IMG/VR virus record: IMGVR_UViG_2529292726_000020
Origin: a virus
Lineage: Duplodnaviria; Heunggongvirae; Uroviricota; Caudoviricetes
Direction: 5' to 3' (one strand)
DNA length: 21,043 nucleotides
In this document: positions 5,817 through 21,043 of the stretch, piece after piece
Position numbering within the stretch: position 1 is the first letter of the stretch
Layout: every line of letters begins with the position of its first letter
Notes under the pieces: generated by a model
Told to the model about the DNA's origin: nothing
The model's database searches: none
Seen by the model: the letters and a program-made list of their open reading frames with translations, nothing else
Program-made: the position numbers and the translations under genes

Positions 5817-7303
5817 TGGCGAGGGGTATCTGGGTTTCACCCGATGAATTTGTTGCTTTTTCTGAGCCTCAGAAATCACTGACCGCGCAGATTGCCTCCC
5901 GCAGCCGCGCGATCGACTTTTACGGACTGGGCATGTATCTGCCCAATCCTGATCCCATTCTCAAGGCTCAGGGACGGGATATCCGTATCTACCGCGAACT
6001 GCGCACCGACCCGCTGGTCGGAGGCTGTATCCGCAGACGTAAAGCAGCGCTCAAATCGCTGGAGCGTGGACTGGAGCGCGGTCACGCTTCTGCCCGGGTC
6101 TTCCGTTTCATCCGCGACATGCTCGACGATCTGGATCTGTCCCGCATCATCGGTGAGATGAGTGATGCCGTGCTCTACGGGTATCAGCCCTGTGAAATCA
6201 TGTGGGGCCGTTCGGTCAGGGCGTGGGCAGTGACGGATATTGTCGGCAAACCGCCTGAGTGGTTTCAGTTTGATACGGACAACTGCCTGCGCTTCCGGGC
6301 GCGTGATGCGGGTGTGGAGGGTGAGCTGCTGTCACCGTCAAAATTCGTGGTGCCGGCACAGGATGCCTCGTATGACAATCCTTACGGTTTCCCGGACCTG
6401 TCCATGTGCTTCTGGCCGGTCGCCTTCAAGAAAGGCGGGATGAAATTCTGGCTCCGCTTTGCCGAAAAGTTTGGCTCCCCGTGGGTGATCGGTAAGCACC
6501 CGAGGGGTGCAAATGATGCAGAGATTGAAAAACTGCTGGACTCCATGGAGCAGATGGTGGAGGACGCTGTGGCCGCCATCCCCGATGACAGCAGCATTGA
6601 ACTCAAAGCCGCGGATGGCAAGGCGGACAGCAGCGAGGTATTCCGCGAGCTGATCACGCTGTCACGCAGTGAGATCTCCATTGCATTACTCGGTCAGAAT
6701 CAGACCACTGAAGCGAACAGTAACAAGGCCTCTGCACAGGCCGGGCTGGAGGTGACGGCTGATATCCGCGATGCGGATGCGGACATCATTCAGGCGGCAG
6801 TGAATCAGGTCATCAGAACGGTGGTCACCCTGAACTTCGGCGATGTGCCGTGTCCGGTCTGGGCCATGTGGGAACAGGAGGCCATTGATGACACCCGTGC
6901 CACCCGCGACGAAAAACTCACCCGCGCGGGACTACGCCTGACCCCGCAGTACTTCATGCGGGAGTACCAGCTGCAGGAGGGGGATATTGACCTCTCTGAT
7001 GCACCGGTTGCGGACGGGGCAGTGCCTGCGGAGTTTGCCGAGGCGATAAGCGCCGATCATGATGCACAACAGCAGCTTGACGACGCGCTGGACATTCTGA
7101 TGAACGGAGGTGTGTTAAATGGCACGCTGGAACCCGTCCTGGCACCTCTGTTCAGGCGGGTCGAAAACGGGGTTAACCCGTCTGAGCTGCTGGGCGAACT
7201 GGCGGAGCTCTACCCTCAGATGAACACGGACGATCTGCAGGAGCGGCTGGCCCGCTATCAGGGTACGCTTCAGCCACTGGCACAACAGGAACTGAGAGGA
7301 TAA
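5816..7303 (+). CDS. Portal protein (Mu gp29 / DUF935 family)
   Basis: 495-aa ORF following the large terminase with ATG overlapping the upstream stop. Size and position fit a DUF935 portal. Confidence 0.85.
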   Translation: MARGIWVSPDEFVAFSEPQKSLTAQIASRSRAIDFYGLGMYLPNPDPILKAQGRDIRIYRELRTDPLVGGCIRRRKAALKSLERGLERGHASARVFRFIRDMLDDLDLSRIIGEMSDAVLYGYQPCEIMWGRSVRAWAVTDIVGKPPEWFQFDTDNCLRFRARDAGVEGELLSPSKFVVPAQDASYDNPYGFPDLSMCFWPVAFKKGGMKFWLRFAEKFGSPWVIGKHPRGANDAEIEKLLDSMEQMVEDAVAAIPDDSSIELKAADGKADSSEVFRELITLSRSEISIALLGQNQTTEANSNKASAQAGLEVTADIRDADADIIQAAVNQVIRTVVTLNFGDVPCPVWAMWEQEAIDDTRATRDEKLTRAGLRLTPQYFMREYQLQEGDIDLSDAPVADGAVPAEFAEAISADHDAQQQLDDALDILMNGGVLNGTLEPVLAPLFRRVENGVNPSELLGELAELYPQMNTDDLQERLARYQGTLQPLAQQELRG

Positions 7304-9108: not shown

Positions 9109-10062
9109 ATGTCTGATTACTTAAAAGGTAAACGTGTCGTTGATCCGGTACTGACCAGTATCGCCCGTGGCTATAAAAATGCCGCATTCATCGGCGAACG
9201 TATTTTCCCCGTCGTGCTGACGGACAAGGAAGGCGTGCGTGTACCGACCTTCGGGAAAACCGCCTTTGTGGAATATGACACCGAGCGTGCCGTCGGGGCG
9301 GACAGCAATGTTCTGGTCCGTGAAAAAACAGGCACGCTGGACCTGGTGCTGGGTGAACACGATCTGGCTGCGCCGGTGGACTATCGCGAGCAGGCGGAGT
9401 CCATGTTTAACGAAGAGAGCAAGGCCATCCGTCGCGCCACGAATGGCGTGAACCTGCGCCGTGAACTTATCGCTGCCCGTCTGGCTCAGGATGAAAAGGT
9501 CTACCGTACCGGGCACGTCAAAAAACTGACAGCCAGTGATCGCTGGGCCGGTGGTAAGGGGGACCCCATCGGGGTGATTGAAGCCGGTATGGAAGCGGTC
9601 CGTACGGCCACGGGGCTGCGTCCTAACCTGATGACCATGGGGGCCGGCGTGATGGCGCTGCTGAAGTTCCACCCGGCGATTCAGGCCGCTATCGGAGCCA
9701 ACGAACGCAAGCGCATCACCACAGAAATCCTGCAGGACCTCTTTCAGATCGAAGAGATCGTCATCGGTGCCCCAGTCTCCCTGCCGTCCATGAAAGCGGC
9801 AATGGATAAGAACAGCGTGCCGGCGGATATCTGGGGAGACAATCTGATGCTGCACTATGTCGGCAAACCGCAGCCGGGGGCGGACAGCGCGGACGAGAAC
9901 GAGCCGTCCTTCGGCTACACCCTGCGTCGTAAGGGGATGCCTGTTGCCGACAAATACGACGGAGCCGGTGGCAAGGTGAAGTACTGCCGTTATACCGATA
10001 TCTACAAAGTCGCCGTGGTTGGTGGCGATGCCGGGTATCTCATTACCGGTATCAGTAAATAA
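9109..10062 (+). CDS. Major head (capsid) protein (Mu T-like)
   Basis: 317 aa, strong SD AAGGAGAG, position directly after protease/scaffold. Confidence 0.8.
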   Translation: MSDYLKGKRVVDPVLTSIARGYKNAAFIGERIFPVVLTDKEGVRVPTFGKTAFVEYDTERAVGADSNVLVREKTGTLDLVLGEHDLAAPVDYREQAESMFNEESKAIRRATNGVNLRRELIAARLAQDEKVYRTGHVKKLTASDRWAGGKGDPIGVIEAGMEAVRTATGLRPNLMTMGAGVMALLKFHPAIQAAIGANERKRITTEILQDLFQIEEIVIGAPVSLPSMKAAMDKNSVPADIWGDNLMLHYVGKPQPGADSADENEPSFGYTLRRKGMPVADKYDGAGGKVKYCRYTDIYKVAVVGGDAGYLITGISK

Positions 10063-10071
10063 GGAGGCGTT

Positions 10072-10410
10072 ATGGGAACCACTCAGCAGGTCATTCTGAT
10101 CACAACCGTAACGGCAGGGGCAGCACTGGCACAGCAGCGTTTTGTCGGGGCAGATAATACCCCCTGTAAAGCCGGTGCCGCAGCGCTCGGGGTTGCCGAA
10201 GTGGATGCTGTTACCGGCGACAGCACGCCGGTGAGCGTTCTGGGCATTATTGCTGTCGAGGCCGGGGCCGCTGTCAGCCGTGGTGTGGCTGTTCAGTCAG
10301 ATGCTCAGGCCAGAGCCGTGCCGCAGTCCGGCGACGGTAAATCCTGTGGTATTGCACTTGATGAAGCCGGGGGTGAAGGCGACGTCATTCGTATCCTGCG
10401 CGGGGTGTGA
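10072..10410 (+). CDS. Small Gly/Ala/Val-rich head-associated protein (DUF2190-like by recollection)
   Basis: 112 aa with SD AGGAGG, immediately after the major head gene. Confidence 0.5.
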   Translation: MGTTQQVILITTVTAGAALAQQRFVGADNTPCKAGAAALGVAEVDAVTGDSTPVSVLGIIAVEAGAAVSRGVAVQSDAQARAVPQSGDGKSCGIALDEAGGEGDVIRILRGV

Positions 10411-10411
10411 C

Positions 10412-10858
10412 ATGTACTGCACCCTGGAGGATTTGCTTGCGCAGGTGCCGGAGCGGACGCTTATCGAGCTCACCAGTGAAGAGATGGACTTCGACTCGCC
10501 TGCAACAGTGAATACCCGTGTGGTGGACAGCTGTATCCGCTATGCCGACGAGCTGATTGATGCCCATCTGCGCGGACGCTATATCCTGCCACTGGCAGAG
10601 ATACCGACTGTTCTGCGGGACATTGCCATCACGCTGGTCCGTTACCGGCTCTACGCCCGCCGCCCGGAAGGTGACCTCCCGGATACGGTGAAGGATGACC
10701 ACAAAGAAGCGCTGCGGCAACTCAGGGAGTTACGTGATAACAGGCTCACGCTGGGGCTGCCGTCCACTCAGAAAGATGTGCCTGAGCCTGGCGAGTTTCG
10801 TGTACGCAGTCGCCCGGCCACTTTCGGCGGTCGTGACGGTTTACTGGAGAAATACTGA
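10412..10858 (+). CDS. Head-tail connector / neck protein (Mu gp36 / DUF1320-like)
   Basis: In-frame ATG at 10412 inside track ORF 10250-10858, adjacent to the upstream stop. N-terminus MYCTLEDLLAQVPERTLIELT fits gp36-like proteins. Confidence 0.65.
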   Translation: MYCTLEDLLAQVPERTLIELTSEEMDFDSPATVNTRVVDSCIRYADELIDAHLRGRYILPLAEIPTVLRDIAITLVRYRLYARRPEGDLPDTVKDDHKEALRQLRELRDNRLTLGLPSTQKDVPEPGEFRVRSRPATFGGRDGLLEKY

Positions 10859-11322
10859 TGAACGTTCTGCCCGTCCTTGATGCGGTACTGGCCCGGTTAC
10901 GCGAGAAGCTGCCGCAACTGCAGGTGGAGTACTTCCCGGAGAAACCGGCTGAATATCGCCTGAACCATCCGGTTGGCGCGTTGCTGTTGAGCTATGCCGG
11001 TTCGCACTTTGACAGGCCGGATGATACCGGTGCGGTGATCCAGTCTCAGACTATCCAGCTCTGCGTCACGGTGGTCTTCCGCCAGCTCAACGGTAAAAAA
11101 GGGGCGATTAATGTCCTGGATGCTGTCCGCCGCATTCTCGGTGGCCACACCCCGCCCGGCTGCCGCCGCCGTATCTGGCTGACCCGCGAGGTGTTTATCG
11201 GTGAAGTCAGGGGGCTGTGGCAGTACGCCCTCGACTTCGCGACTGAAAGCGTCTTTATCGAAGACAGCGATTTACCGTCCGGCCCGCTGTTAACCGAAGT
11301 GAACTATGAGGAAAGCGAGTGA
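10858..11322 (+). CDS. Head completion / tail joining protein (Mu gp37 / DUF1834-like)
   Basis: 154 aa, start overlapping upstream stop. Confidence 0.6.
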   Translation: MNVLPVLDAVLARLREKLPQLQVEYFPEKPAEYRLNHPVGALLLSYAGSHFDRPDDTGAVIQSQTIQLCVTVVFRQLNGKKGAINVLDAVRRILGGHTPPGCRRRIWLTREVFIGEVRGLWQYALDFATESVFIEDSDLPSGPLLTEVNYEESE

Positions 11323-11573
11323 TGAAAGAATACCGCTATTCCGGCCCGGCCAGCGGCGTCACGCTGTCGGACGGAACCGAAATCCTGCTCTGGCCGGGGA
11401 AGACGGTTTCCCTGCCGGAGGAGCATGACTACGTGAAGGTACTGGTGGCGCTGAAACATCTGACGCCGGTACCTGAAGAGACTAAACCCGCCGGCACACC
11501 GGCTGTGCAGTCACCAAAGCGCAGAAGCAGCAGTGACAGCGAAGTGAAAACGGAGGACACCCATGGCAGCTAA
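11322..11573 (+). CDS. Hypothetical small phage protein (position of Mu gp38)
   Basis: ATG at 11322 overlapping the upstream TGA (track lists the GTG at 11319). GAGGAA upstream. Confidence 0.45.
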   Translation: MKEYRYSGPASGVTLSDGTEILLWPGKTVSLPEEHDYVKVLVALKHLTPVPEETKPAGTPAVQSPKRRSSSDSEVKTEDTHGS

Positions 11574-13892: not shown

Positions 13893-14228
13893 ATGTCACA
13901 GACCCCATCCGATACTTTTAAATTGTCTTATCCCTTCACCACTGCTGCAGGCACCAGAATTGAGCTGGTTGAACTGAAACGCCTGACGGTAAAAGACCTG
14001 AAGCAGGTGCGCAAAATCAGCAAAAACCCGGCAGACTGGGACGAACCGCTGATTGCCCGCAGTACTGGTCTTCTCCCGGAAGATCTCGACAATATGGATC
14101 TGGCTGATTACCTGCAGTTACAGAAACGATTTCAGCTCATCACGGGGATGGGTGAGAGCAACCAGGGCGCTGACGCAGGCGCAGGGGCTGCTGGCGAGAT
14201 GGTTCCGGTTTCAGCCGGGGGAGATTGA
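13893..14228 (+). CDS. Tail assembly chaperone (P2 gpE / lambda G analogue)
   Basis: 111 aa with SD AGGAG, directly upstream of the tape measure. Gly/Ala-rich low-complexity C-terminus. An overlapping ORF (14053-14310) has no start of its own. Confidence 0.7.
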   Translation: MSQTPSDTFKLSYPFTTAAGTRIELVELKRLTVKDLKQVRKISKNPADWDEPLIARSTGLLPEDLDNMDLADYLQLQKRFQLITGMGESNQGADAGAGAAGEMVPVSAGGD

Positions 14229-14310
14229 TGCCCTCGATACTGACGATCTGGAGATGTGGCTGGAGCAGGCTGAAGAGCAAATAAAAAGCGAGTACGGCGA
14301 CAAATCATAG
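13893..14310 (+). CDS. Predicted frameshift fusion product of the tail chaperone (E+E'-like), requiring a +1 shift
   Basis: Track ORF 14053-14310 is in the +1 frame relative to 13893-14228 and encodes a protein-like acidic helical segment (..ARWFRFQPGEIDALDTDDLEMWLEQAEEQIK..). A G5 run at ~14217-14221 is a possible slip site. Confidence 0.4.
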
Positions 14311-14385: not shown

Positions 14386-17274
14386 ATGTCGGGACAGTTT
14401 TCAGTCGGCGTTGTTATCGGCGGGATGATTGGTAGCACATTCCGTTCTGCAATGAGCGGTACCCGCCGTGCGCTTGATTCCCTGAGCGATACCTCACGCC
14501 GCCTGCAGGAACGTCAGAACGCTTTAACCCGTGCAACAGAACGTTATGGTCAACTGGGTTCTTCCCGGATGCAGCATCTCAACAGCGAGCTGCTGCGGGT
14601 AAGCCGCACCATGGAGCAAATTGAGCGCCAGCAGCGCCGTCTGTCAGCGGCATCCGCTACCAGTGATGCGCTGAAAGCTAACCGCATGGCGCTGTATGGT
14701 CAGGGGATTGAAGCGTATGGCATGGCACAGACTGTTTATCATACGGTTTCCCCTGCCGTTCAGCAGTCCATGTCTTTTCAGGACAAAATGATTGATATGT
14801 CGATCACCGCAAAATATGACAATAAAACGCGGGATGCACTTGCCGGACAGATAAAAGGCTGGGCGCTTAAATACAATCAGTATCAGGATGAGCTGCAGGA
14901 GGCGGTGGGTTCACTCATCAGCGACAATATTGATAATGTGTCAGATATCGGTTTTCTGATGCCGGATATTGCCCGCGCGGCAACGGCAACACGCACGTCT
15001 GCTCAGGACTGGGCAAAAGTGGCCGCAGTCTGGCAAAACTCCCTGAAAGGTGCGGCCAGAGATTTTGGTGCCGTTCAGAATATTATGGCTTATGCCGGTG
15101 ACCAGGGGTCATTTGAAATCCCGGATCAGGTCAAGTGGATGCAGTCCCTGGCCCCAATGATGGCGGGTATTGCCAGTGGAAAAGAGGCTGTTGCTGAAAT
15201 CGGGGCCAGTCTCCAGATAGCAAAAATCGGTGCAGGTTCCACCGACGAAGCAGCCAATAATTTTAAAAACTTTCTTACCAAAATTTTTGCCCGCGATACT
15301 CAGAAACAGTTTGCTGATCTGGGTATTGATTTGCAGGGATCTATTGCGAGTTATAAAGCTGCGGGGATCTCTCCGATTGAAGGGATGTTGAGTGTTATAG
15401 AACGTTACCTCAATGCCAAAAGCCCCGAAGCGCTGGCCGGCTTCAAATCAGCCATGAAAATAAAGAATGATACGGCAAGAGATGAGGCACTTCAGGCTCT
15501 GGCGAAAAACTTTGGTCTGGGCGATATGTTCGCGGATATGCAGGTCATGGCATTTATCCGCCCGATGCTGGCCAACATGGACAGATATCGAGAGATCCGT
15601 GCCGGTGCTCTCAGGGCTGCGGATAACGATTTGCTTGCCAGTGCTTATGATCAGCGGCTGAAATCTCCCCTTGAAGCCACTAAAGCACTTATGGTCAGCA
15701 GTCGCGATCTGGCAATTACGCTGGGCGATCAATTAGCTCCATCTTTTATTTCTCTGACTCAGGAACTGCTTCCACTCATTCAGGGGGCAAAACACTGGGT
15801 AGCGACTCACCCGCAATTTGTCAGTGGGGCTTTTAAGCTCATCAGTGCGCTCCTTGCGATTAAGATAGCGACTGTTGGTCTCAAACTGGGGCTGAATCTC
15901 CTTATTTCCCCCTTTGTAAGTGTCTGGAAAAATGCTGTTTTACTTCGGGCCAACTGGCTTCGTCTGTCGCTCGCACTGGGGCAAGGCGGTAAGCTCCGCT
16001 GCTGGCTGGTTCGCGGAATTATGCTCGCCGGTCGTGCTGTTCTCTGGATTGGACGTGCGCTGATGATGAATCCCATCGGTCTCGTTATCACCGCTGTCGC
16101 GGCAGCAGCTTACCTTATCTACCGCAACTGGTGGGCAGTCAGTGGCTGGTTTAAACAGCGCTGGGCAGACATTCAGGAAGCCTTTAACGGCGGCATTGTG
16201 GGAATTGGTAAGTTGCTGATTAACTGGTCGCCGGCAGGCCTGCTCTATAAAGCCTTTGCGGCTGCGCTGAAATATTTCGGCGTTGCTCTGCCGGCAAAGT
16301 TCACCGACTTCGGTGGCCATCTTATCGACGGTCTGATTAACGGTATCAAAAACAAATGGGGGTCGCTCAAATCCAGTGTAACCGGAATGGGTGACAGCAT
16401 CAGTAGCTGGTTTAAACAGTGCTGGGCTGACATTCAGGAAGCCTTTAACGGCGGTATCGCGGGAACTGGTAAGCTGCTGATTAACTGGTCGCCGGCAGGT
16501 CTGCTCTATAAAGCCTTTGCAGCTGCGCTGAAATATCTTGGTGTTGATCTGCCGGCAAAGTTCACCGACTTCGGTGGCCATCTTGTCGACGGTCTGATTA
16601 ACGGTATCAAAAACAAATGGGAGTCGCTCAAATCCAGTGTAACCGGAATGGGTGACAGCATCAGTGGCTGGTTCAGCGAAAAGCTGGGCATTCATTCGCC
16701 GAGTCGCGTGTTTATGGGCTTTGGTGACAATATCGCGCAGGGGGCCGCCATTGGCCTGCAGCGGACCACTCCGCTTGCAGCTCTGGCCGGGCAGCGAATG
16801 GCCAGTGAACTGCTCCCCAAAATGCCCGTGAGCATTCAGGGGCCAGAAATACGGGATAACACTTCAGGTGTTCGCTTCAGTATGCCGTTGCCCGATATCA
16901 ACGGGTTTATGTCGTCTGCTAAAAATGCGATCGGAGCCGTAATCAATAGTTTGTCTTCCATGCCCGCTATCCCGCTCTCCACCCGGGCATCGATTTTACC
17001 AGGGCAACGTCTGGCAAATGAGATGACACCGGATGTTCCCCGTATCCCCTCGCCTGAAATCATGGCTGCCGGATATTCAGGCCGTGGTGCAGCTGCAACC
17101 GGCGGTGGAACGTCTGGTGGTATCCAGGTCAGCTTTAATCCTCAGTTTTTCCTCAATGGCAGGGAAACCGCAGCGCCTGCCGGGCTGACTGGCGCCCTGA
17201 ATATGAGCCTGCATGAGCTGGAAAAAATGCTGGAGCGTCTGCTGGCTCAGAAACAACGTAAGGAGTACAGCTGA
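14386..17274 (+). CDS. Tail tape measure protein
   Basis: 962 aa with SD GGAGG. N-terminal coiled-coil, central hydrophobic segments, Gly-rich C-terminus. Standard position after the chaperone. Confidence 0.9.
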   Translation: MSGQFSVGVVIGGMIGSTFRSAMSGTRRALDSLSDTSRRLQERQNALTRATERYGQLGSSRMQHLNSELLRVSRTMEQIERQQRRLSAASATSDALKANRMALYGQGIEAYGMAQTVYHTVSPAVQQSMSFQDKMIDMSITAKYDNKTRDALAGQIKGWALKYNQYQDELQEAVGSLISDNIDNVSDIGFLMPDIARAATATRTSAQDWAKVAAVWQNSLKGAARDFGAVQNIMAYAGDQGSFEIPDQVKWMQSLAPMMAGIASGKEAVAEIGASLQIAKIGAGSTDEAANNFKNFLTKIFARDTQKQFADLGIDLQGSIASYKAAGISPIEGMLSVIERYLNAKSPEALAGFKSAMKIKNDTARDEALQALAKNFGLGDMFADMQVMAFIRPMLANMDRYREIRAGALRAADNDLLASAYDQRLKSPLEATKALMVSSRDLAITLGDQLAPSFISLTQELLPLIQGAKHWVATHPQFVSGAFKLISALLAIKIATVGLKLGLNLLISPFVSVWKNAVLLRANWLRLSLALGQGGKLRCWLVRGIMLAGRAVLWIGRALMMNPIGLVITAVAAAAYLIYRNWWAVSGWFKQRWADIQEAFNGGIVGIGKLLINWSPAGLLYKAFAAALKYFGVALPAKFTDFGGHLIDGLINGIKNKWGSLKSSVTGMGDSISSWFKQCWADIQEAFNGGIAGTGKLLINWSPAGLLYKAFAAALKYLGVDLPAKFTDFGGHLVDGLINGIKNKWESLKSSVTGMGDSISGWFSEKLGIHSPSRVFMGFGDNIAQGAAIGLQRTTPLAALAGQRMASELLPKMPVSIQGPEIRDNTSGVRFSMPLPDINGFMSSAKNAIGAVINSLSSMPAIPLSTRASILPGQRLANEMTPDVPRIPSPEIMAAGYSGRGAAATGGGTSGGIQVSFNPQFFLNGRETAAPAGLTGALNMSLHELEKMLERLLAQKQRKEYS
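16147..16668 (+). repeat. In-frame tandem duplication, 2 x 261 bp (2 x 87 aa), inside the tape measure gene
   Basis: Copy 1 16147-16407 (WFKQRWADIQEAFNGG..GMGDSISS) and copy 2 16408-16668 (WFKQCWADIQEAFNGG..GMGDSISG) differ at 8 of 87 residues. The duplicate antisense ORFs 16245-16433 and 16506-16691 are also offset by 261 bp. Confidence 0.9.
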
Positions 17275-17819
17275 TGTTTGCCGTACTGGGTGATATTGAG
17301 TTTGAACTGATTACCTACTGGGACGGCTTCGAGGCCACGTTTGGCGTCGATTATGCGGAGCATGCCCGCATCGAGGGTAAACCCGGCCTGCAGTTCGTCG
17401 GCGACAGGCTGGACGAAATCCAGATAACTCTGGTTTTCCATCAGCATTATTGTGTACCCGATGTGGAGCTGGCGAGAGTGCGAACAGCCATGAAAGCCCA
17501 TCAGGCACTGGCGCTGGTCTTCGGCAACGGTGACTATCGCGGCTGGTTCGTGATTACCGATGTGACCGCAACCAGCGAGCAGACAGACAGCACCGGTAAC
17601 GTGCTGGCTGTCAGTGCCACCGTGTCTCTCCGGGAATACACCGGTGATCCGAAAAATCCTCTGCAACCGCCGGCAATACGCACGAAGTTCCCGGTGCCGG
17701 GGCGGTCTCCGGTGCCATTCCATCACCTTCAGGGGTGGCGCAGTTCATCCGCAACGGCGTCAACTATGCGAAACAGGCGCAGTCTGTACTCCAGACCACT
17801 ATCAGCGCCGTTCGGGTGA
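17274..17819 (+). CDS. Tail protein, P2 gpU-like / N-domain of Mu-type DNA-circulation protein; C-terminal ~55 aa look out of frame
   Basis: N-terminal ~125 aa (MFAVLGDIEFEL..GLQFVGDRLDEIQITLVF..GWFVITDVTAT..VSLREY) fit the gpU-like pattern. The rest is Pro/Arg/Ser-rich and unlike protein sequence. Confidence 0.55.
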   Translation: MFAVLGDIEFELITYWDGFEATFGVDYAEHARIEGKPGLQFVGDRLDEIQITLVFHQHYCVPDVELARVRTAMKAHQALALVFGNGDYRGWFVITDVTATSEQTDSTGNVLAVSATVSLREYTGDPKNPLQPPAIRTKFPVPGRSPVPFHHLQGWRSSSATASTMRNRRSLYSRPLSAPFG

Positions 17820-18157
17820 CACAGAAAATGAAGGATAACCCCGTTGTCGCACTGACCCGTGTGCCGGGGCTGATGAGCGGACTGGGTAATATCTCCGGGG
17901 CTCTGGGGAAAAGTGTTCCGGCGTTTAACGCACTCTCTGAATCCATGCCCGATGCCATCAGTCTGGCCAGAACAGCCAGCGAAGCAGCCACGTATGTACA
18001 GCAGGCACAGTCTGCGCTGAGTGGTGTGGACAAAAGAAATATTGCAGGTGCTCTGGATACCGTTTCCGGGCAGCTTAACGCCGCCGGCACAGCATTCAAC
18101 CGCATGTCTCCGGGATTAAGTGCAATGGCCGCCAGAATACTGACGAGGAGTGTGTGA
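17735..18157 (+). CDS. Tail protein fragment; probable downstream part of a frameshift-split gene
   Basis: 140-aa ORF in the -1 frame relative to 17274-17819. Its GTG has no spaced SD. The frame is open back to 17648. Confidence 0.45.
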   Translation: MAQFIRNGVNYAKQAQSVLQTTISAVRVTQKMKDNPVVALTRVPGLMSGLGNISGALGKSVPAFNALSESMPDAISLARTASEAATYVQQAQSALSGVDKRNIAGALDTVSGQLNAAGTAFNRMSPGLSAMAARILTRSV

Positions 18158-18369
18158 TGTTTCTTGAACATGTTACCCGTGATGGAGAGCGCTGGGATTC
18201 GCTGGCATGGCAGTACTACGGTGACCCGCTGGGCTATCCCCGGATTATTGCCGCCAATCCGCACGTGGCCATCACGCCGGTGCTGCCCTCCGGGCTGTTG
18301 TTACTGATCCCGGTGATTGAGACTGAAGAAGCCCGTACAGAAGAGGATATTGCCCCATGGCTGAGATAA
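18157..18369 (+). CDS. Tail protein X-like (LysM-like domain, P2 gpX family)
   Basis: ATG at 18157 overlapping the upstream TGA, SD GAGGAG. Sequence ..WDSLAWQYYGDPLGYPRIIAANPHV.. fits the gpX pattern. Confidence 0.65.
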   Translation: MFLEHVTRDGERWDSLAWQYYGDPLGYPRIIAANPHVAITPVLPSGLLLLIPVIETEEARTEEDIAPWLR

Positions 18370-19511
18370 ACAGCACTGCGCAAGTCACATCAGCGTTAAC
18401 CGGCGTCAGCGATGTGCTGACATCGGTGTTCACTCTGTGGTATCTGCAGAAAAACATCACCTCTGATATCGCGCCTTATGTCACCCGTGTGACCTGGAGC
18501 GATAACATCAAAAATGAGTCCGATACCATTGAGGTGGAGCTGGACGACACCGATGGCCGCTGGCTGGATAAGTGGTATCCGGGCAAGGGTGACACGCTGA
18601 CGCTGAAAATGGGCTATCAGGGCGAGAAGCTGCTGTCCTGCGGTACGTTCTCTATAGACGAGATCGAAGTGAGTTCGCCCGCTTCCGTTGTTTCTATCCG
18701 TGGGGTGGCCACCTCGGTTAACAGTGCCCTGCGGACTAAATCCAGTCGTGGTTTTGAGAACACCACGCTGGCAGCTGTTGCGGGGCGGATTGCCAGAAAG
18801 CACCGACTGAAACTGGTGGGCAGCATTGAGTCCATCAGAATCGACCGGGTGACCCAGTATGCTGAAACCGACGTGGGTTTTCTGCGCCGGCTGGCCAGCG
18901 AGTATGGTTATGCAGTGAAAGTGGTCAGTGACCAGCTGATTTTTTCTCATCTGGCCACACTGCGCAGTCAGGAGACGGTCAGGCAGTTAAAACCGCAGGA
19001 TGTGGCCCGCTTTTCCCTGCGTGACACCATCAACCGGGTCTATAAATCTGCAAAGGTAAAACACCAGAAAAGCAGCAGTAAAAAACTGATCGTCCACGAA
19101 GCTGATGGTGGTACCCGTGAAAGCGACAAAAAGCTCAAAGGTGGTAAGGTTACCAGCGCTGACTCACTTAAAGTTAACAGCCGCGTCAGCGACCCGGACA
19201 GTGCCCGGATTAAAGCGGATTCAGCACTGGCCAGACATAACGAATACCAGCAGAACGGCTCCCTGACGCTGACGGGAACACCTCAACTGACAGCAGGCAA
19301 CAAAATTGAACTGGTGGGTTTTGGGCAGTTATCCGGGCCATGGCTCATAACCACTGCCCGCCATGCGTTTGACCGTAACAGCGGCTACACCACAGAGCTG
19401 GAAGTGGCACGGGGGCCAGTCACAAGAGGGAAAAAACAAAAAACTCAGAAACTCACGGTTTATCACCCGGATGGCAGTACATCGACGGTGATTAAGGAGA
19501 AGAAAAAATGA
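18357..19511 (+). CDS. Baseplate hub protein (P2 gpD / Mu gp44-like, late control D family)
   Basis: 384 aa in the expected position after gpX-like and before the spike. Confidence 0.8.
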   Translation: MAEINSTAQVTSALTGVSDVLTSVFTLWYLQKNITSDIAPYVTRVTWSDNIKNESDTIEVELDDTDGRWLDKWYPGKGDTLTLKMGYQGEKLLSCGTFSIDEIEVSSPASVVSIRGVATSVNSALRTKSSRGFENTTLAAVAGRIARKHRLKLVGSIESIRIDRVTQYAETDVGFLRRLASEYGYAVKVVSDQLIFSHLATLRSQETVRQLKPQDVARFSLRDTINRVYKSAKVKHQKSSSKKLIVHEADGGTRESDKKLKGGKVTSADSLKVNSRVSDPDSARIKADSALARHNEYQQNGSLTLTGTPQLTAGNKIELVGFGQLSGPWLITTARHAFDRNSGYTTELEVARGPVTRGKKQKTQKLTVYHPDGSTSTVIKEKKK

Positions 19512-20104
19512 CTGGTGTCACTCGTCAGGTCGGTACGGTCAGTGCCGTTGATGCCGACAGGGTTCAGGCCCGCGTTCGTCTGCCTGAATGCGATAACCTG
19601 CGCACAAACTGGCTTAACGTGCTGCAGCGTAATACCCAGGATAACAAAGATTACTGGCTCCCTGACGTGGGGGAGCAGGTTGAGGTGCTGCTCGATGCCA
19701 ACGGCGAGGATGGTGTTATTCTGGGCGCGGTGTACTCAGACGTCGATAAACCACCGTTCAGTGACAAAAATATCCGGGGAACCCGGTTTGCTGATGGTGC
19801 AGAGTACAGCTACAACCGGAAGACGCACACTCTGACCATCCGGGGCGGCATTGAGCATATTGTCATTGAGTGTGGTGCTGATGTGGTATTGAAAACACAG
19901 AAAGCCACGATTGACGCACCGGAAACCGAACTTACCGGAGATCTGCGTGTCAGGGGAAAGCTGATTTACGAAGGAGGCATGGCGGGTTCTGGTGGTAAAG
20001 GTGTTACCGCGACCATCCATGGCAATATCGAGATTAAAGGGAATGCCCATGCCACGGGCAGTATGCTGTCTGATGGCGAAAACTCCAGCCACCACTCCCA
20101 CTGA
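19508..20104 (+). CDS. Baseplate spike protein (P2 gpV / Mu gp45-like)
   Basis: 198 aa with SD AAGGAGAAG. OB-fold-like N-terminus and Gly-rich C-terminal region typical of gpV-type spikes. Confidence 0.8.
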   Translation: MTGVTRQVGTVSAVDADRVQARVRLPECDNLRTNWLNVLQRNTQDNKDYWLPDVGEQVEVLLDANGEDGVILGAVYSDVDKPPFSDKNIRGTRFADGAEYSYNRKTHTLTIRGGIEHIVIECGADVVLKTQKATIDAPETELTGDLRVRGKLIYEGGMAGSGGKGVTATIHGNIEIKGNAHATGSMLSDGENSSHHSH

Positions 20105-20106
20105 GC

Positions 20107-20128
20107 TTCTTAAACGCCTTTAATATCA
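20107..20128 (+). promoter_or_regulatory. Recurrent late-promoter-like motif, copy 4 (tcTTAAacgccTTTAATATCa), about 31 bp upstream of the W-like gene
   Basis: See findings. Followed by a 7-bp GC hairpin (20141-20158) abutting the ATG. Confidence 0.35.
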
Positions 20129-20158
20129 GCGTTCCCGCACGGGGGCAATACTGCCCCC

Positions 20159-20496
20159 ATGAAAACGACCTCAGTATTCTGGCAACCAGCCCTGCAGGCT
20201 CCCGGCGAAATTGTCCGGGGGCTGGATGATATCCGGCAGGCGATTCAAATTATCCTGCGGACTCCCCGCGGCAGCGACCCGCATCGCCCGGAGTTCGGCA
20301 GCAATCTGCATCTTTATATCGACTGGCCTGTAGACCGGGCCATTCCGCATGTGGTGCGCGAATCCGTCGATGCCATCCGGCGCTGGGAGCCCCGCTGCCA
20401 GCTTATGTCAGTTAAACCCGCCGTCGACGGCGAACATCTTACGCTCCGGGTGAGCTGGAAAGGCTCAGACGGACAGACCCGGACTCAGGAGCTGCT

Positions 20497-20506
<10 letters not shown>
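20159..20506 (+). CDS. Baseplate protein (P2 gpW / Mu gp46-like, GPW_gp25 family)
   Basis: 115 aa; position and size fit gpW-type proteins. Confidence 0.8.

Positions 20507-21043
<537 letters not shown>

Follow-up and report, generated by a model that had tools for sequence, protein, structure and literature searches.

Judged by its sequence, the stretch at 17274-18157 is one tail gene of 294 codons that is split by a single missing base. We suggest, with a probability of about 0.6, that the missing base is an artefact of a chimeric consensus, generated when the assembler merged two near-identical copies of a prophage. The window, i.e. the whole stretch of 21,043 nucleotides analysed here, is the entire draft contig APXK01000036.1 of E. 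coli strain 2875150 (assembly GCA_000356245.1) and is a BcepMu/Mu-like prophage that belongs to a prophage family common in E. coli.

One gene in two reading frames

Two ORFs cover the gene on the plus strand. ORF1 (17274-17819, ATG start) has 181 codons, while the downstream ORF (17735-18157, GTG start, 140 codons) lies in the -1 frame, which is open from 17648 onward, just after a TGA at 17645-17647; in these respects the first-pass annotation described the region correctly. ORF1 covers positions 1-148 (E=7.9e-84) and the downstream frame positions 148-296 (E=1.1e-44) of phrog_788, a tail protein profile of 297 positions. Because the two frames match adjoining halves of one profile, they are not linked by chance. 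In all relatives the whole profile is matched by a single polypeptide, whereas in the window it is distributed over two frames. Similarly, intact 294-aa homologues aligned by tblastn with residues 1-138 in frame +3 and residues 138-294 in frame +2 at 98% identity, and this three-frame comparison, which had been proposed as a check, places the frame switch at residue 138. Thus, the profile halves and the frame switch bear out the earlier suggestion of a single gene for about 294 aa with a one-base indel between 17648 and 17735.

The gene accordingly has three parts, all on the plus strand. The 5' part (17274-17687) comprises codons 1-138 in the original frame and holds the complete tube-like GpU domain (PF06995, aa 6-123, E=5.6e-38). 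It is followed by an out-of-frame tail of 43 nonsense codons and a TGA stop (17688-17819; translation FPVPGRSPVP...SAPFG), which is rich in Ser, Pro and Arg (eight, six and six residues, respectively) and has no homology in the ORF1 frame by tblastn. The 3' part (17687-18157) comprises codons 139-294 and the stop codon in the -1 frame, and encodes the remaining linker and the C-terminal four-helix bundle. ORF1 had previously been divided into about 125 homologous and about 55 odd residues; the lengths of the two segments are instead 138 and 43 aa. The exact 181-aa ORF1 product is recorded from contig APXK01000036.1 alone.

Relatives carry the gene in one piece. At the same spot, a single CDS of 885 nt and 294 aa is annotated in each of 19 fetched loci, and all 99 listed hits from 633 complete E. 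coli genomes (the 40 top-ranked and 59 sampled at regular intervals along the ranking) span 888 nt, as against 887 in the window. Among 150 listed representatives of clusters at 50% identity, 69 cover all 294 aa with a single match (29-55% identity). These data effectively refute the reading in which two genuine genes, or one gene with a programmed -1 ribosomal frameshift, are present. Reinitiation is possible in principle, as an ATG at 17828 lies 8 nt past the ORF1 stop, and short GpU proteins that lack a bundle exist, e.g. the 159-aa gpU of phage P2. Against this, all 99 listed hits and all 19 annotated loci are in frame, none of the 150 listed representatives is a distant stand-alone bundle gene, and the ORF1 frame lacks an X_XXY_YYZ slippery heptamer. 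The GTG at 17735 has no properly spaced SD upstream, as noted before. A search among the 19 loci and 99 listed hits for relatives with two conserved ORFs and a ribosome-binding site for the second found none. Split versions do occur in other public assemblies (L007-L009, L018 and others); we considered these as a conserved two-gene form and rejected them, because they break at differing positions and are surrounded by many fragmented genes.

Position of the missing base

Alignments to relatives place the missing base in codon 139, within 17687-17694 (plus strand). Two placements are possible: a GTT/CTT codon that followed AAG may have lost its first base (17687|17688), or GGG may have been shortened to GG (17693-17694). 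The former is favoured because residue 139 is V, L or I in all 46 intact homologues listed. The break falls in the disordered linker between the tube domain and the helical bundle. An A5 run and a G4 run had been put forward as candidate sites; with corrected coordinates, these runs are at 17652-17656 and 17699-17702, respectively, and neither holds the gap.

Neither the window allele nor its restored form was seen elsewhere among complete E. coli genomes, GTDB representative genomes and JGI metagenome contigs. Specifically, exact-pattern scans of the GTDB representative genomes and JGI metagenomes for the linker allele, with either candidate base or none restored, gave no match, and a restored 152-nt query against 5426 complete E. 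coli genomes gave a best match of 96.1% and no exact allele. As the restored allele is absent from the collections scanned, the lost base is placed to within 8 nt. A 91-nt query spanning the gap matched only a more remote, KP12-like class of alleles (87-89% identity). Six KP12-like loci were considered as close donors and set aside as too divergent; yet the 885-nt gene is intact in each of them.

Gene neighbourhood and product

The ORF list and Pfam matches give the gene order TMP, U, X, D, V, W, J. The tape measure protein gene (14386-17274, plus strand, 962 aa, PF10145 PhageMin_Tail) has an internal repeat of some 270 nt, and its stop codon shares bases with the ATG of the split gene (TGATG). 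Downstream on the plus strand are the gene for the gpX (Phage_tail_X) "glue" protein (18157-18369, 70 aa, PF05489, E=2.3e-18), the start of which is placed at a TGATG overlap in annotations of relatives, and the gpD baseplate hub gene (18357-19511, PF05954). By comparison with relatives, the baseplate gene J (20497-20697, plus strand) is truncated to its first 67 codons by an IS100 element. The end of this element, with the 3' part of istB, occupies 20698-21043 on the minus strand (PF01695; 100% identity to IS100 of E. coli 510016), and the contig terminates within it.

The product is a member of the P2 GpU family of tail-tube initiators with a C-terminal four-helix bundle, 294 aa in total. 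PF06995 (Phage_P2_GpU) matches with 129.7 bits against a cut-off of 27.5, and aa 6-123 correspond to positions 1-119 of the 120 in the profile. The location agrees with this assignment: the tape measure gene comes directly before, and the gpD hub gene lies downstream. In the AlphaFold2 model of a homologue (P0012), strands extend up to residue 122, residues 126-153 are disordered and helices span residues 154-291 with pLDDT 77-94, while the N-terminal domain has low pLDDT (22-70) in the monomer model. The Pro/Gly-rich linker, predicted to be disordered, thus has about 28 residues and the bundle about 140. In Foldseek searches, only weak matches to baseplate chains of contractile systems were obtained (9g8s_S, 7b5h_AK and 6rbk_A; E 0.01-0.07), and the structure search with the C-terminal bundle returned only generic or designed four-helix bundles.

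A mosaic of two prophages

As references, we used two related prophages, referred to here as prophages P1 and P2, that E. coli 510016 carries together in its complete genome. They occupy 801-842 kb and 4787-4827 kb of NZ_CP025851.1; the chromosomal flank of P1 has yehR/yehS and that of P2 has tynA/feaB. At 248 of the 277 sites that vary between them, the window carries one or the other allele in almost equal numbers (P1, 125; P2, 123), with about 50 switches. With KP12 as the outgroup, derived states are common to the window and P1 at 21 sites and to the window and P2 at 14 sites, and the two sets are interleaved. These shared derived states reject a three-taxon star tree in which the window would represent an ancestor-like haplotype. 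In a leave-one-out copying test over 17274-20690 (3.4 kb), the window is divided into 19 segments by 18 switches; 18 of the segments equal P1 or P2, and private sites are absent. By contrast, 11 natural haplotypes from complete genomes need 0-6 switches, and the P2 haplotype is identical to that of SF-088.

The gap sits exactly at a switch from P1 to P2. Around it, the window has P1 states at 17683/17686, P2 states at 17688/17697 and again P1 states at 17704-17717, together with the 11-nt TTCCCGGTGCC. Without gaps, the P1 and P2 alleles at codons 139-142 are four substitutions apart; alternatively, two 1-nt gaps that offset each other bring them into alignment (P1, AAG-CTCCCGGGTGTC; P2, CAGGTTCCCGG-TGCC), and within the mixed regions of the window the gap site is the only place where the two alleles are alignable with indels. 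The chance that a random deletion lands in this 8-nt interval of the 885-nt gene is about 1%.

Because the window is an abnormal P1/P2 mosaic with the gap at an allele switch, the deposited gap is probably a matter of assembly rather than biology. In the model that we favour, strain 2875150 would hold both a P1-like and a P2-like copy, and the assembler would have collapsed them into a contig in which alleles are mixed column by column. A consensus that took the gap in both gapped columns would give the AAGTTCCCGGTGCC of the window, which is exactly one base short. In the deposited contig, the base missing from codon 139 leaves 43 nonsense codons behind the tube domain and puts the bundle in the -1 frame. 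Among genomes with a member of this prophage family, about 10% have two or more copies (701 places in 636 records).

Several observations speak against an artefact. The second copy in strain 2875150 is inferred rather than seen in reads or coverage. Allele switches 2-7 nt apart are impossible for a de Bruijn assembler, so that an assembler of the overlap-consensus type is required. The gapped alignment of P1 and P2 is one choice, and with the ungapped alignment the gap derives from neither parent. Moreover, 26 clustered private sites at 9774-11562 indicate that the prophage or prophages of strain 2875150 differ from those of 510016.

The same contig also offers support for the view that 1 nt was genuinely lost from a decaying prophage whose tail was defective already; this loss would detach the wedge-joining bundle from the tube-initiator domain and could be either a private deletion or the outcome of gene conversion between co-resident prophages via a slipped heteroduplex at the offset alleles. 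We regard this as a possible but distinctly less probable account. No other 1-nt indel is present in the roughly 20 kb that align with P1 or P2, which argues both against the artefact and against a contig that is generally error-ridden. The complete, PacBio-era genome of 510016 has the IS100 junction in J (20697/20698) with 100% identity; in this relative the insertion is thus real, and selection on the tail genes was accordingly already lifted. The window has a second private lesion, an 800-bp deletion that removes a Mu F-like gene and occurs in none of 639 complete genomes; together with IS100 in J, this deletion is typical of a decaying prophage, in which a genuine frameshift would fit. Neighbouring tail genes are frameshifted in complete genomes as well, e.g. 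J is annotated as "frameshifted" in 2014C-3075. However, a genuine deletion would have to coincide with an allele switch and with parental alleles that are alignable with offset indels. In addition, the mosaic (18 switches, many single-site patches and no private SNPs) is far outside the range of the 11 complete genomes and unlike known conversion tracts, in which neighbouring markers are co-converted by long-patch mismatch repair. Finally, P1 and P2 of 510016 have no trace of such exchange, and the P2 haplotype matches SF-088. In our view it is unlikely that mosaic and frameshift are both real, i.e. that two Mu-like prophages in one E. coli chromosome swapped many very short gene-conversion patches and that one crossover between alleles with compensated 1-nt indels made the frameshift.

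It is very unlikely that the gap arose in the draft simply through wrong base calling or a homopolymer error, with no second copy involved. Short runs (AAGG / CCCGGG) make up the G/C-rich sequence around the site, and linker indels are scattered in other public assemblies beside many broken neighbouring genes, as is typical of error-prone assemblies. However, there is only one such indel in about 20 kb, and a plain error leaves both the mosaic and the position of the gap at an allele switch unexplained.

Implications for tail assembly and genome annotation

The first-pass annotation had suggested that the gap, if genuine, probably makes the tail assembly pathway defective. We consider this doubtful because the contig has the appearance of two copies merged in a chimeric consensus, such that the gap is probably not biological, and because IS100 already interrupts the baseplate gene J. 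The gene is an ordinary tube initiator, and one broken copy in one draft contig adds nothing on tail assembly. Whether artefact or real, the one-base gap is ordinary: if real, it would be routine decay of a prophage in which J is already interrupted by IS100. If mosaic and frameshift were both true, co-resident prophages could inactivate each other's genes without new point mutations. In genome scans, collapsed-repeat chimerism should be the first thing to check when a single frameshift turns up in a draft contig from a multi-copy prophage family, before a pseudogene is called.

Comparison with known systems

The pattern in the window resembles a chimeric consensus at a collapsed repeat. Two copies of about 98.7% identity seem to have been merged, the choice of allele flips, there are no private variants in 17274-20690, and the indel is located where the copies are alignable out of register. 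In the window, the merger is proposed from assembled sequences, and switches 2-7 nt apart would need an overlap-consensus assembler and near-tied votes.

The intact protein has the design of tube initiators of contractile systems. In phage P2, cryo-EM has shown that the tube is initiated by six copies of gpU seated on the trimeric gpD hub (bioRxiv 10.64898/2026.09.14.750843). The N-terminal 125 aa of the window protein are a clear member of PF06995, and the gene is immediately 3' of the tape measure gene; an hhalign comparison with P2 gpU itself gave a tentative match (residues 28-120 with 29-121, E=1.8e-4, probability 48%). However, P2 gpU has 159 aa and only a short C-terminal helix instead of a linker and bundle, and in P2 the D gene directly follows U, whereas in the window gpX is encoded between them. 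The R2 pyocin tube initiator ("ripcord" or BCP protein) agrees in architecture, with a tube domain fused to a C-terminal helical bundle, which joins the baseplate wedges (PMC10811340), and in gene order, with the glue protein gene placed between those of the initiator and the hub. The split gene had been labelled as Mu gp43-type. Mu gp43 (DNA circularization protein N), the tube initiator of Mu, has 495 aa and consists of a tube-like domain, a flexible loop and a helix-rich, wedge-contacting domain that includes a LysM module (PMC11915804). It shares this plan with the window protein, and its gene likewise lies between those for the tape measure protein and the hub. However, the bundle of the window protein is predicted to be a plain four-helix bundle without LysM and a separate gpX gene (PF05489) follows. 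The label does not hold in view of the Phage_P2_GpU match: hhalign with Mu gp43 gave a probability of 1.7% and aligned no more than a low-complexity helical stretch, and Pfam gave no DNA_circ_N match at E<=0.1. Thus, Mu gp43 is a functional analogue of the protein and not a sequence relative.

Results

The reading frames at 17274-17819 (ORF1; + strand, 181 aa, ATG start) and 17735-18157 (ORF2; + strand, 140 aa, GTG start, -1 frame) are parts of one 294-codon gene, 17274-18157, that is broken by a single-base indel. ORF1 aligns to positions 1-148 of the 297-position PHROGs profile phrog_788 (E=7.9e-84), and the downstream frame to positions 148-296 (E=1.1e-44). ORF1 contains a complete Phage_P2_GpU domain at aa 6-123 (Pfam, E=5.6e-38); ORF2 has no Pfam match. 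The frame of ORF2 is open from 17648, with the closing TGA upstream at 17645-17647. In the tblastn alignment of intact homologues to the window, which the first-pass annotation had suggested, residues 1-138 align in frame +3 and residues 138-294 in frame +2, with 98% identity. Because the frame changes at residue 138, ORF1 consists of 138 aa of in-frame protein and a 43-aa nonsense tail rich in Ser/Pro/Arg. The phrog_788 halves, the tblastn frames and the intact relatives described below bear out the earlier proposal of one gene split by a single-base indel.

Where the nearest relatives have AAGCTCCCGGGTGTC, the window has AAGTTCCC-GGTGCC, and where a second allele class has CAGGTTCCCGGTGCC, it has AAG-TTCCCGGTGCC; the two alignments therefore point to a gap within 17687-17694, in codon 139. 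Residue 139 is V, L or I in 46 of the 46 intact homologues listed and F in none, which favours loss of the first base of this codon, at 17687|17688. The exact restored allele had no match in complete E. coli genomes (n=5426), GTDB representative genomes or JGI metagenomes, and the placement within 17687-17694 therefore stays two-way. The first-pass annotation had both ORFs and the open -1 frame right, but the A5 and G4 runs that it proposed as indel sites have coordinates 17652-17656 and 17699-17702, outside the gap interval.

In both phage PhiKM (97.9% identical DNA) and the Klebsiella phage record KP12 (OM835952.1), one undivided CDS of 885 nt separates the tape measure gene from gpX, and one 885-nt CDS annotated 'phage tail protein' is present in 17 of 17 fetched complete-genome loci. 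A near-full-length gene occurs in 633 of 5426 complete E. coli genomes; its span is 888 nt, versus 887 in the window, in the 40/40 top-ranked rows and in 59/59 near-full-length rows at even ranking steps, a count over these 99 listed rows. Of the 150 entries listed from a search against 1.84 billion cluster representatives, 69 align without a break to all 294 aa, with identity down to 29%, and none of the 150 is a distant stand-alone C-terminal protein. Split versions in public data break at differing sites (an insertion at reference position 434; deletions at 358, 369, 400 and 419; an extra A in the A5 run; a 10-nt deletion) and are surrounded by many other fragmented genes, as is typical of error-prone assemblies. 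Two loci, in GCA_039615205.1 and GCA_039615235.1, both carry one G too many at position 434 of the gene, and many of the neighbouring genes are fragmented; this G seems to be either a systematic error of long-read sequencing or a mutation shared within a lineage. That ORF1 and ORF2 are two real genes, or are joined by recoding (a programmed frameshift), is next to impossible: the undivided gene, carried by all listed relatives, excludes both, public splits break elsewhere, and ORF1 has no slippery heptamer.

The window corresponds in full to draft contig APXK01000036.1 of E. coli 2875150, which is the only source on record of the exact ORF1 sequence. At its right end (20497-21043), IS100 interrupts baseplate gene J after codon 67, and 346 nt of the element are present before the contig stops. 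Among 5426 complete genomes, this junction is matched (100% over 241 nt) in E. coli 510016 only. This genome, which we met while examining the junction, has two related prophages, P1 and P2 (the latter distinct from phage P2). Prophage P2 carries the junction, and its 885-nt gpU gene and head gene F are both intact; in prophage P1, J is intact.

At 277 variable sites among the three sequences, the window agrees with P1 at 125 and with P2 at 123, and 29 are private to it (26 in one patch plus a 3-nt indel in the tape measure gene). The P1 and P2 alleles alternate ~50 times along 1-21043. To test for a three-sequence star tree, sites were polarised with KP12 as the outgroup; the window shares 21 derived states with P1 and 14 with P2, interleaved, so a star tree is ruled out as the source of the alternation and no tree fits. 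In a leave-one-out copying test over 17274-20690 (108 variable sites, 12 close haplotypes), the window had 18 switches and 0 private sites, with 18 of its 19 segments from P1 or P2, versus 0-6 switches in the 11 complete-genome haplotypes; within gpU alone it had 10 versus 0-3. In switch number, the window is an outlier among natural haplotypes. A patch of ~170 nt at 10840-11006, inside a Gp37-family gene, has 22 differences from both 510016 prophages (~13% divergence), as if a short mosaic segment had been acquired from a more distant phage.

The missing base is exactly at a P1-to-P2 switch. The alleles can be aligned there as AAG-CTCCCGGGTGTC (P1) and CAGGTTCCCGG-TGCC (P2), and taking the gap in both indel columns gives exactly the window's 11-nt TTCCCGGTGCC. 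No other place in the allele-mixing regions allows P1 and P2 to be aligned with indels.

Other features of the window include a tandem duplication of ~270 nt (16139-16412 versus 16400-16673, 94% identical) and a private in-frame GCT insertion (15998-16000), both within the tape measure gene (14386-17274), the product of which varies in length among relatives (e.g. 821, 961, 962 and 1070 aa). A protein-like extension ORF, which lies in the +1 rather than the -1 frame and ends at 14310, overlaps the gene for the tail assembly chaperone (13893-14228, Phage_TAC_7). A G5 run at 14217-14221, just ahead of the Phage_TAC_7 stop, may be the usual chaperone recoding site, though the shift direction is unusual.

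Discussion

We suggest, with a probability of roughly 0.6, that the gap is an artefact of assembly. In this scenario, strain 2875150 would carry both prophages, like 510016, and the assembler would have merged them into a single contig; near-ties in the column votes would then have given a chimeric consensus with the frameshift as a by-product. Two or more copies are present in ~10% of carrier genomes, and the run lengths, with rapid-switching bursts between longer runs, would fit a coverage difference that wanders around zero. However, allele switches 2-7 nt apart are impossible from a de Bruijn graph and require an overlap-consensus assembler, and they weigh against an artefact unless one was used. 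Moreover, the two alleles need not be aligned with gaps; if left ungapped, they differ by four substitutions.

Because of these caveats and the real decay of the element, a genuine mutation that left a pseudogene, whether by private deletion or through real gene conversion, is a serious if less likely rival. The gap is the sole 1-nt indel in ~20 kb, and the IS100 insertion in J is common to a finished genome. In addition, ~800 bp that both 510016 prophages have are gone at 7247-7255, where the junction shows an overlap of 8-9 nt; the portal gene end and almost the whole Mu F-like head morphogenesis gene are lost, and none of the 639 matching complete E. coli genomes has this junction. Against a genuine mutation stand the outlying mosaic and the position of the gap exactly on a switch. 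Plain sequencing error is improbable. As the contig may be a collapsed two-copy consensus, any other feature read from it calls for care. We see no new biology here.

If expressed as written, the break, at mid-linker, would leave the tube domain intact with a junk tail appended, and the bundle unexpressed or untethered. The only plausible restart would be the ATG at 17828, 8 nt past the ORF1 stop, giving a product without the first helix. The earlier conclusion that tail assembly is probably defective is not upheld, since the gap is probably not biological.

By sequence, the protein belongs to the GpU family. The first-pass annotation had likened it to a Mu gp43-type protein; Pfam gives Phage_P2_GpU instead, and hhalign gives E=1.8e-4 against phage P2 gpU and no similarity to Mu gp43 (probability 1.7%). 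In the AlphaFold2 model of an intact homologue, P0012, ~91% identical to the in-frame part, beta strands extend as far as residue 122, residues 126-153 form a disordered linker, and a confident four-helix bundle spans 154-291 (pLDDT 77-94). The intact KP12 homologue is annotated 'putative methyl-accepting chemotaxis protein'. Because PDB profile matches to chemoreceptors and fusion proteins are compositional, this label probably reflects only the coiled-coil-like composition of the bundle. The KP12 record is filed under Vequintavirinae, yet has a Mu-like tail module.

Phage P2 gpU is the tube initiator, with six copies on the gpD hub trimer (cryo-EM preprint, bioRxiv 10.64898/2026.09.14.750843). 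In Mu gp43, a tube domain and a flexible loop are followed by a helical domain, which contacts the baseplate wedges by packing and joins them (PMC11915804), and the 'ripcord'/BCP protein of R2 pyocin has the same plan of tube domain, flexible loop and wedge-joining helical domain (PMC10811340). With Mu gp43, the window protein has the domain plan in common, sequence similarity being undetected. Because fold searches gave generic bundles only, its likeness to R2 pyocin rests on architecture and on the gene order TMP-U-X-D, which is the order described for R2 pyocin.
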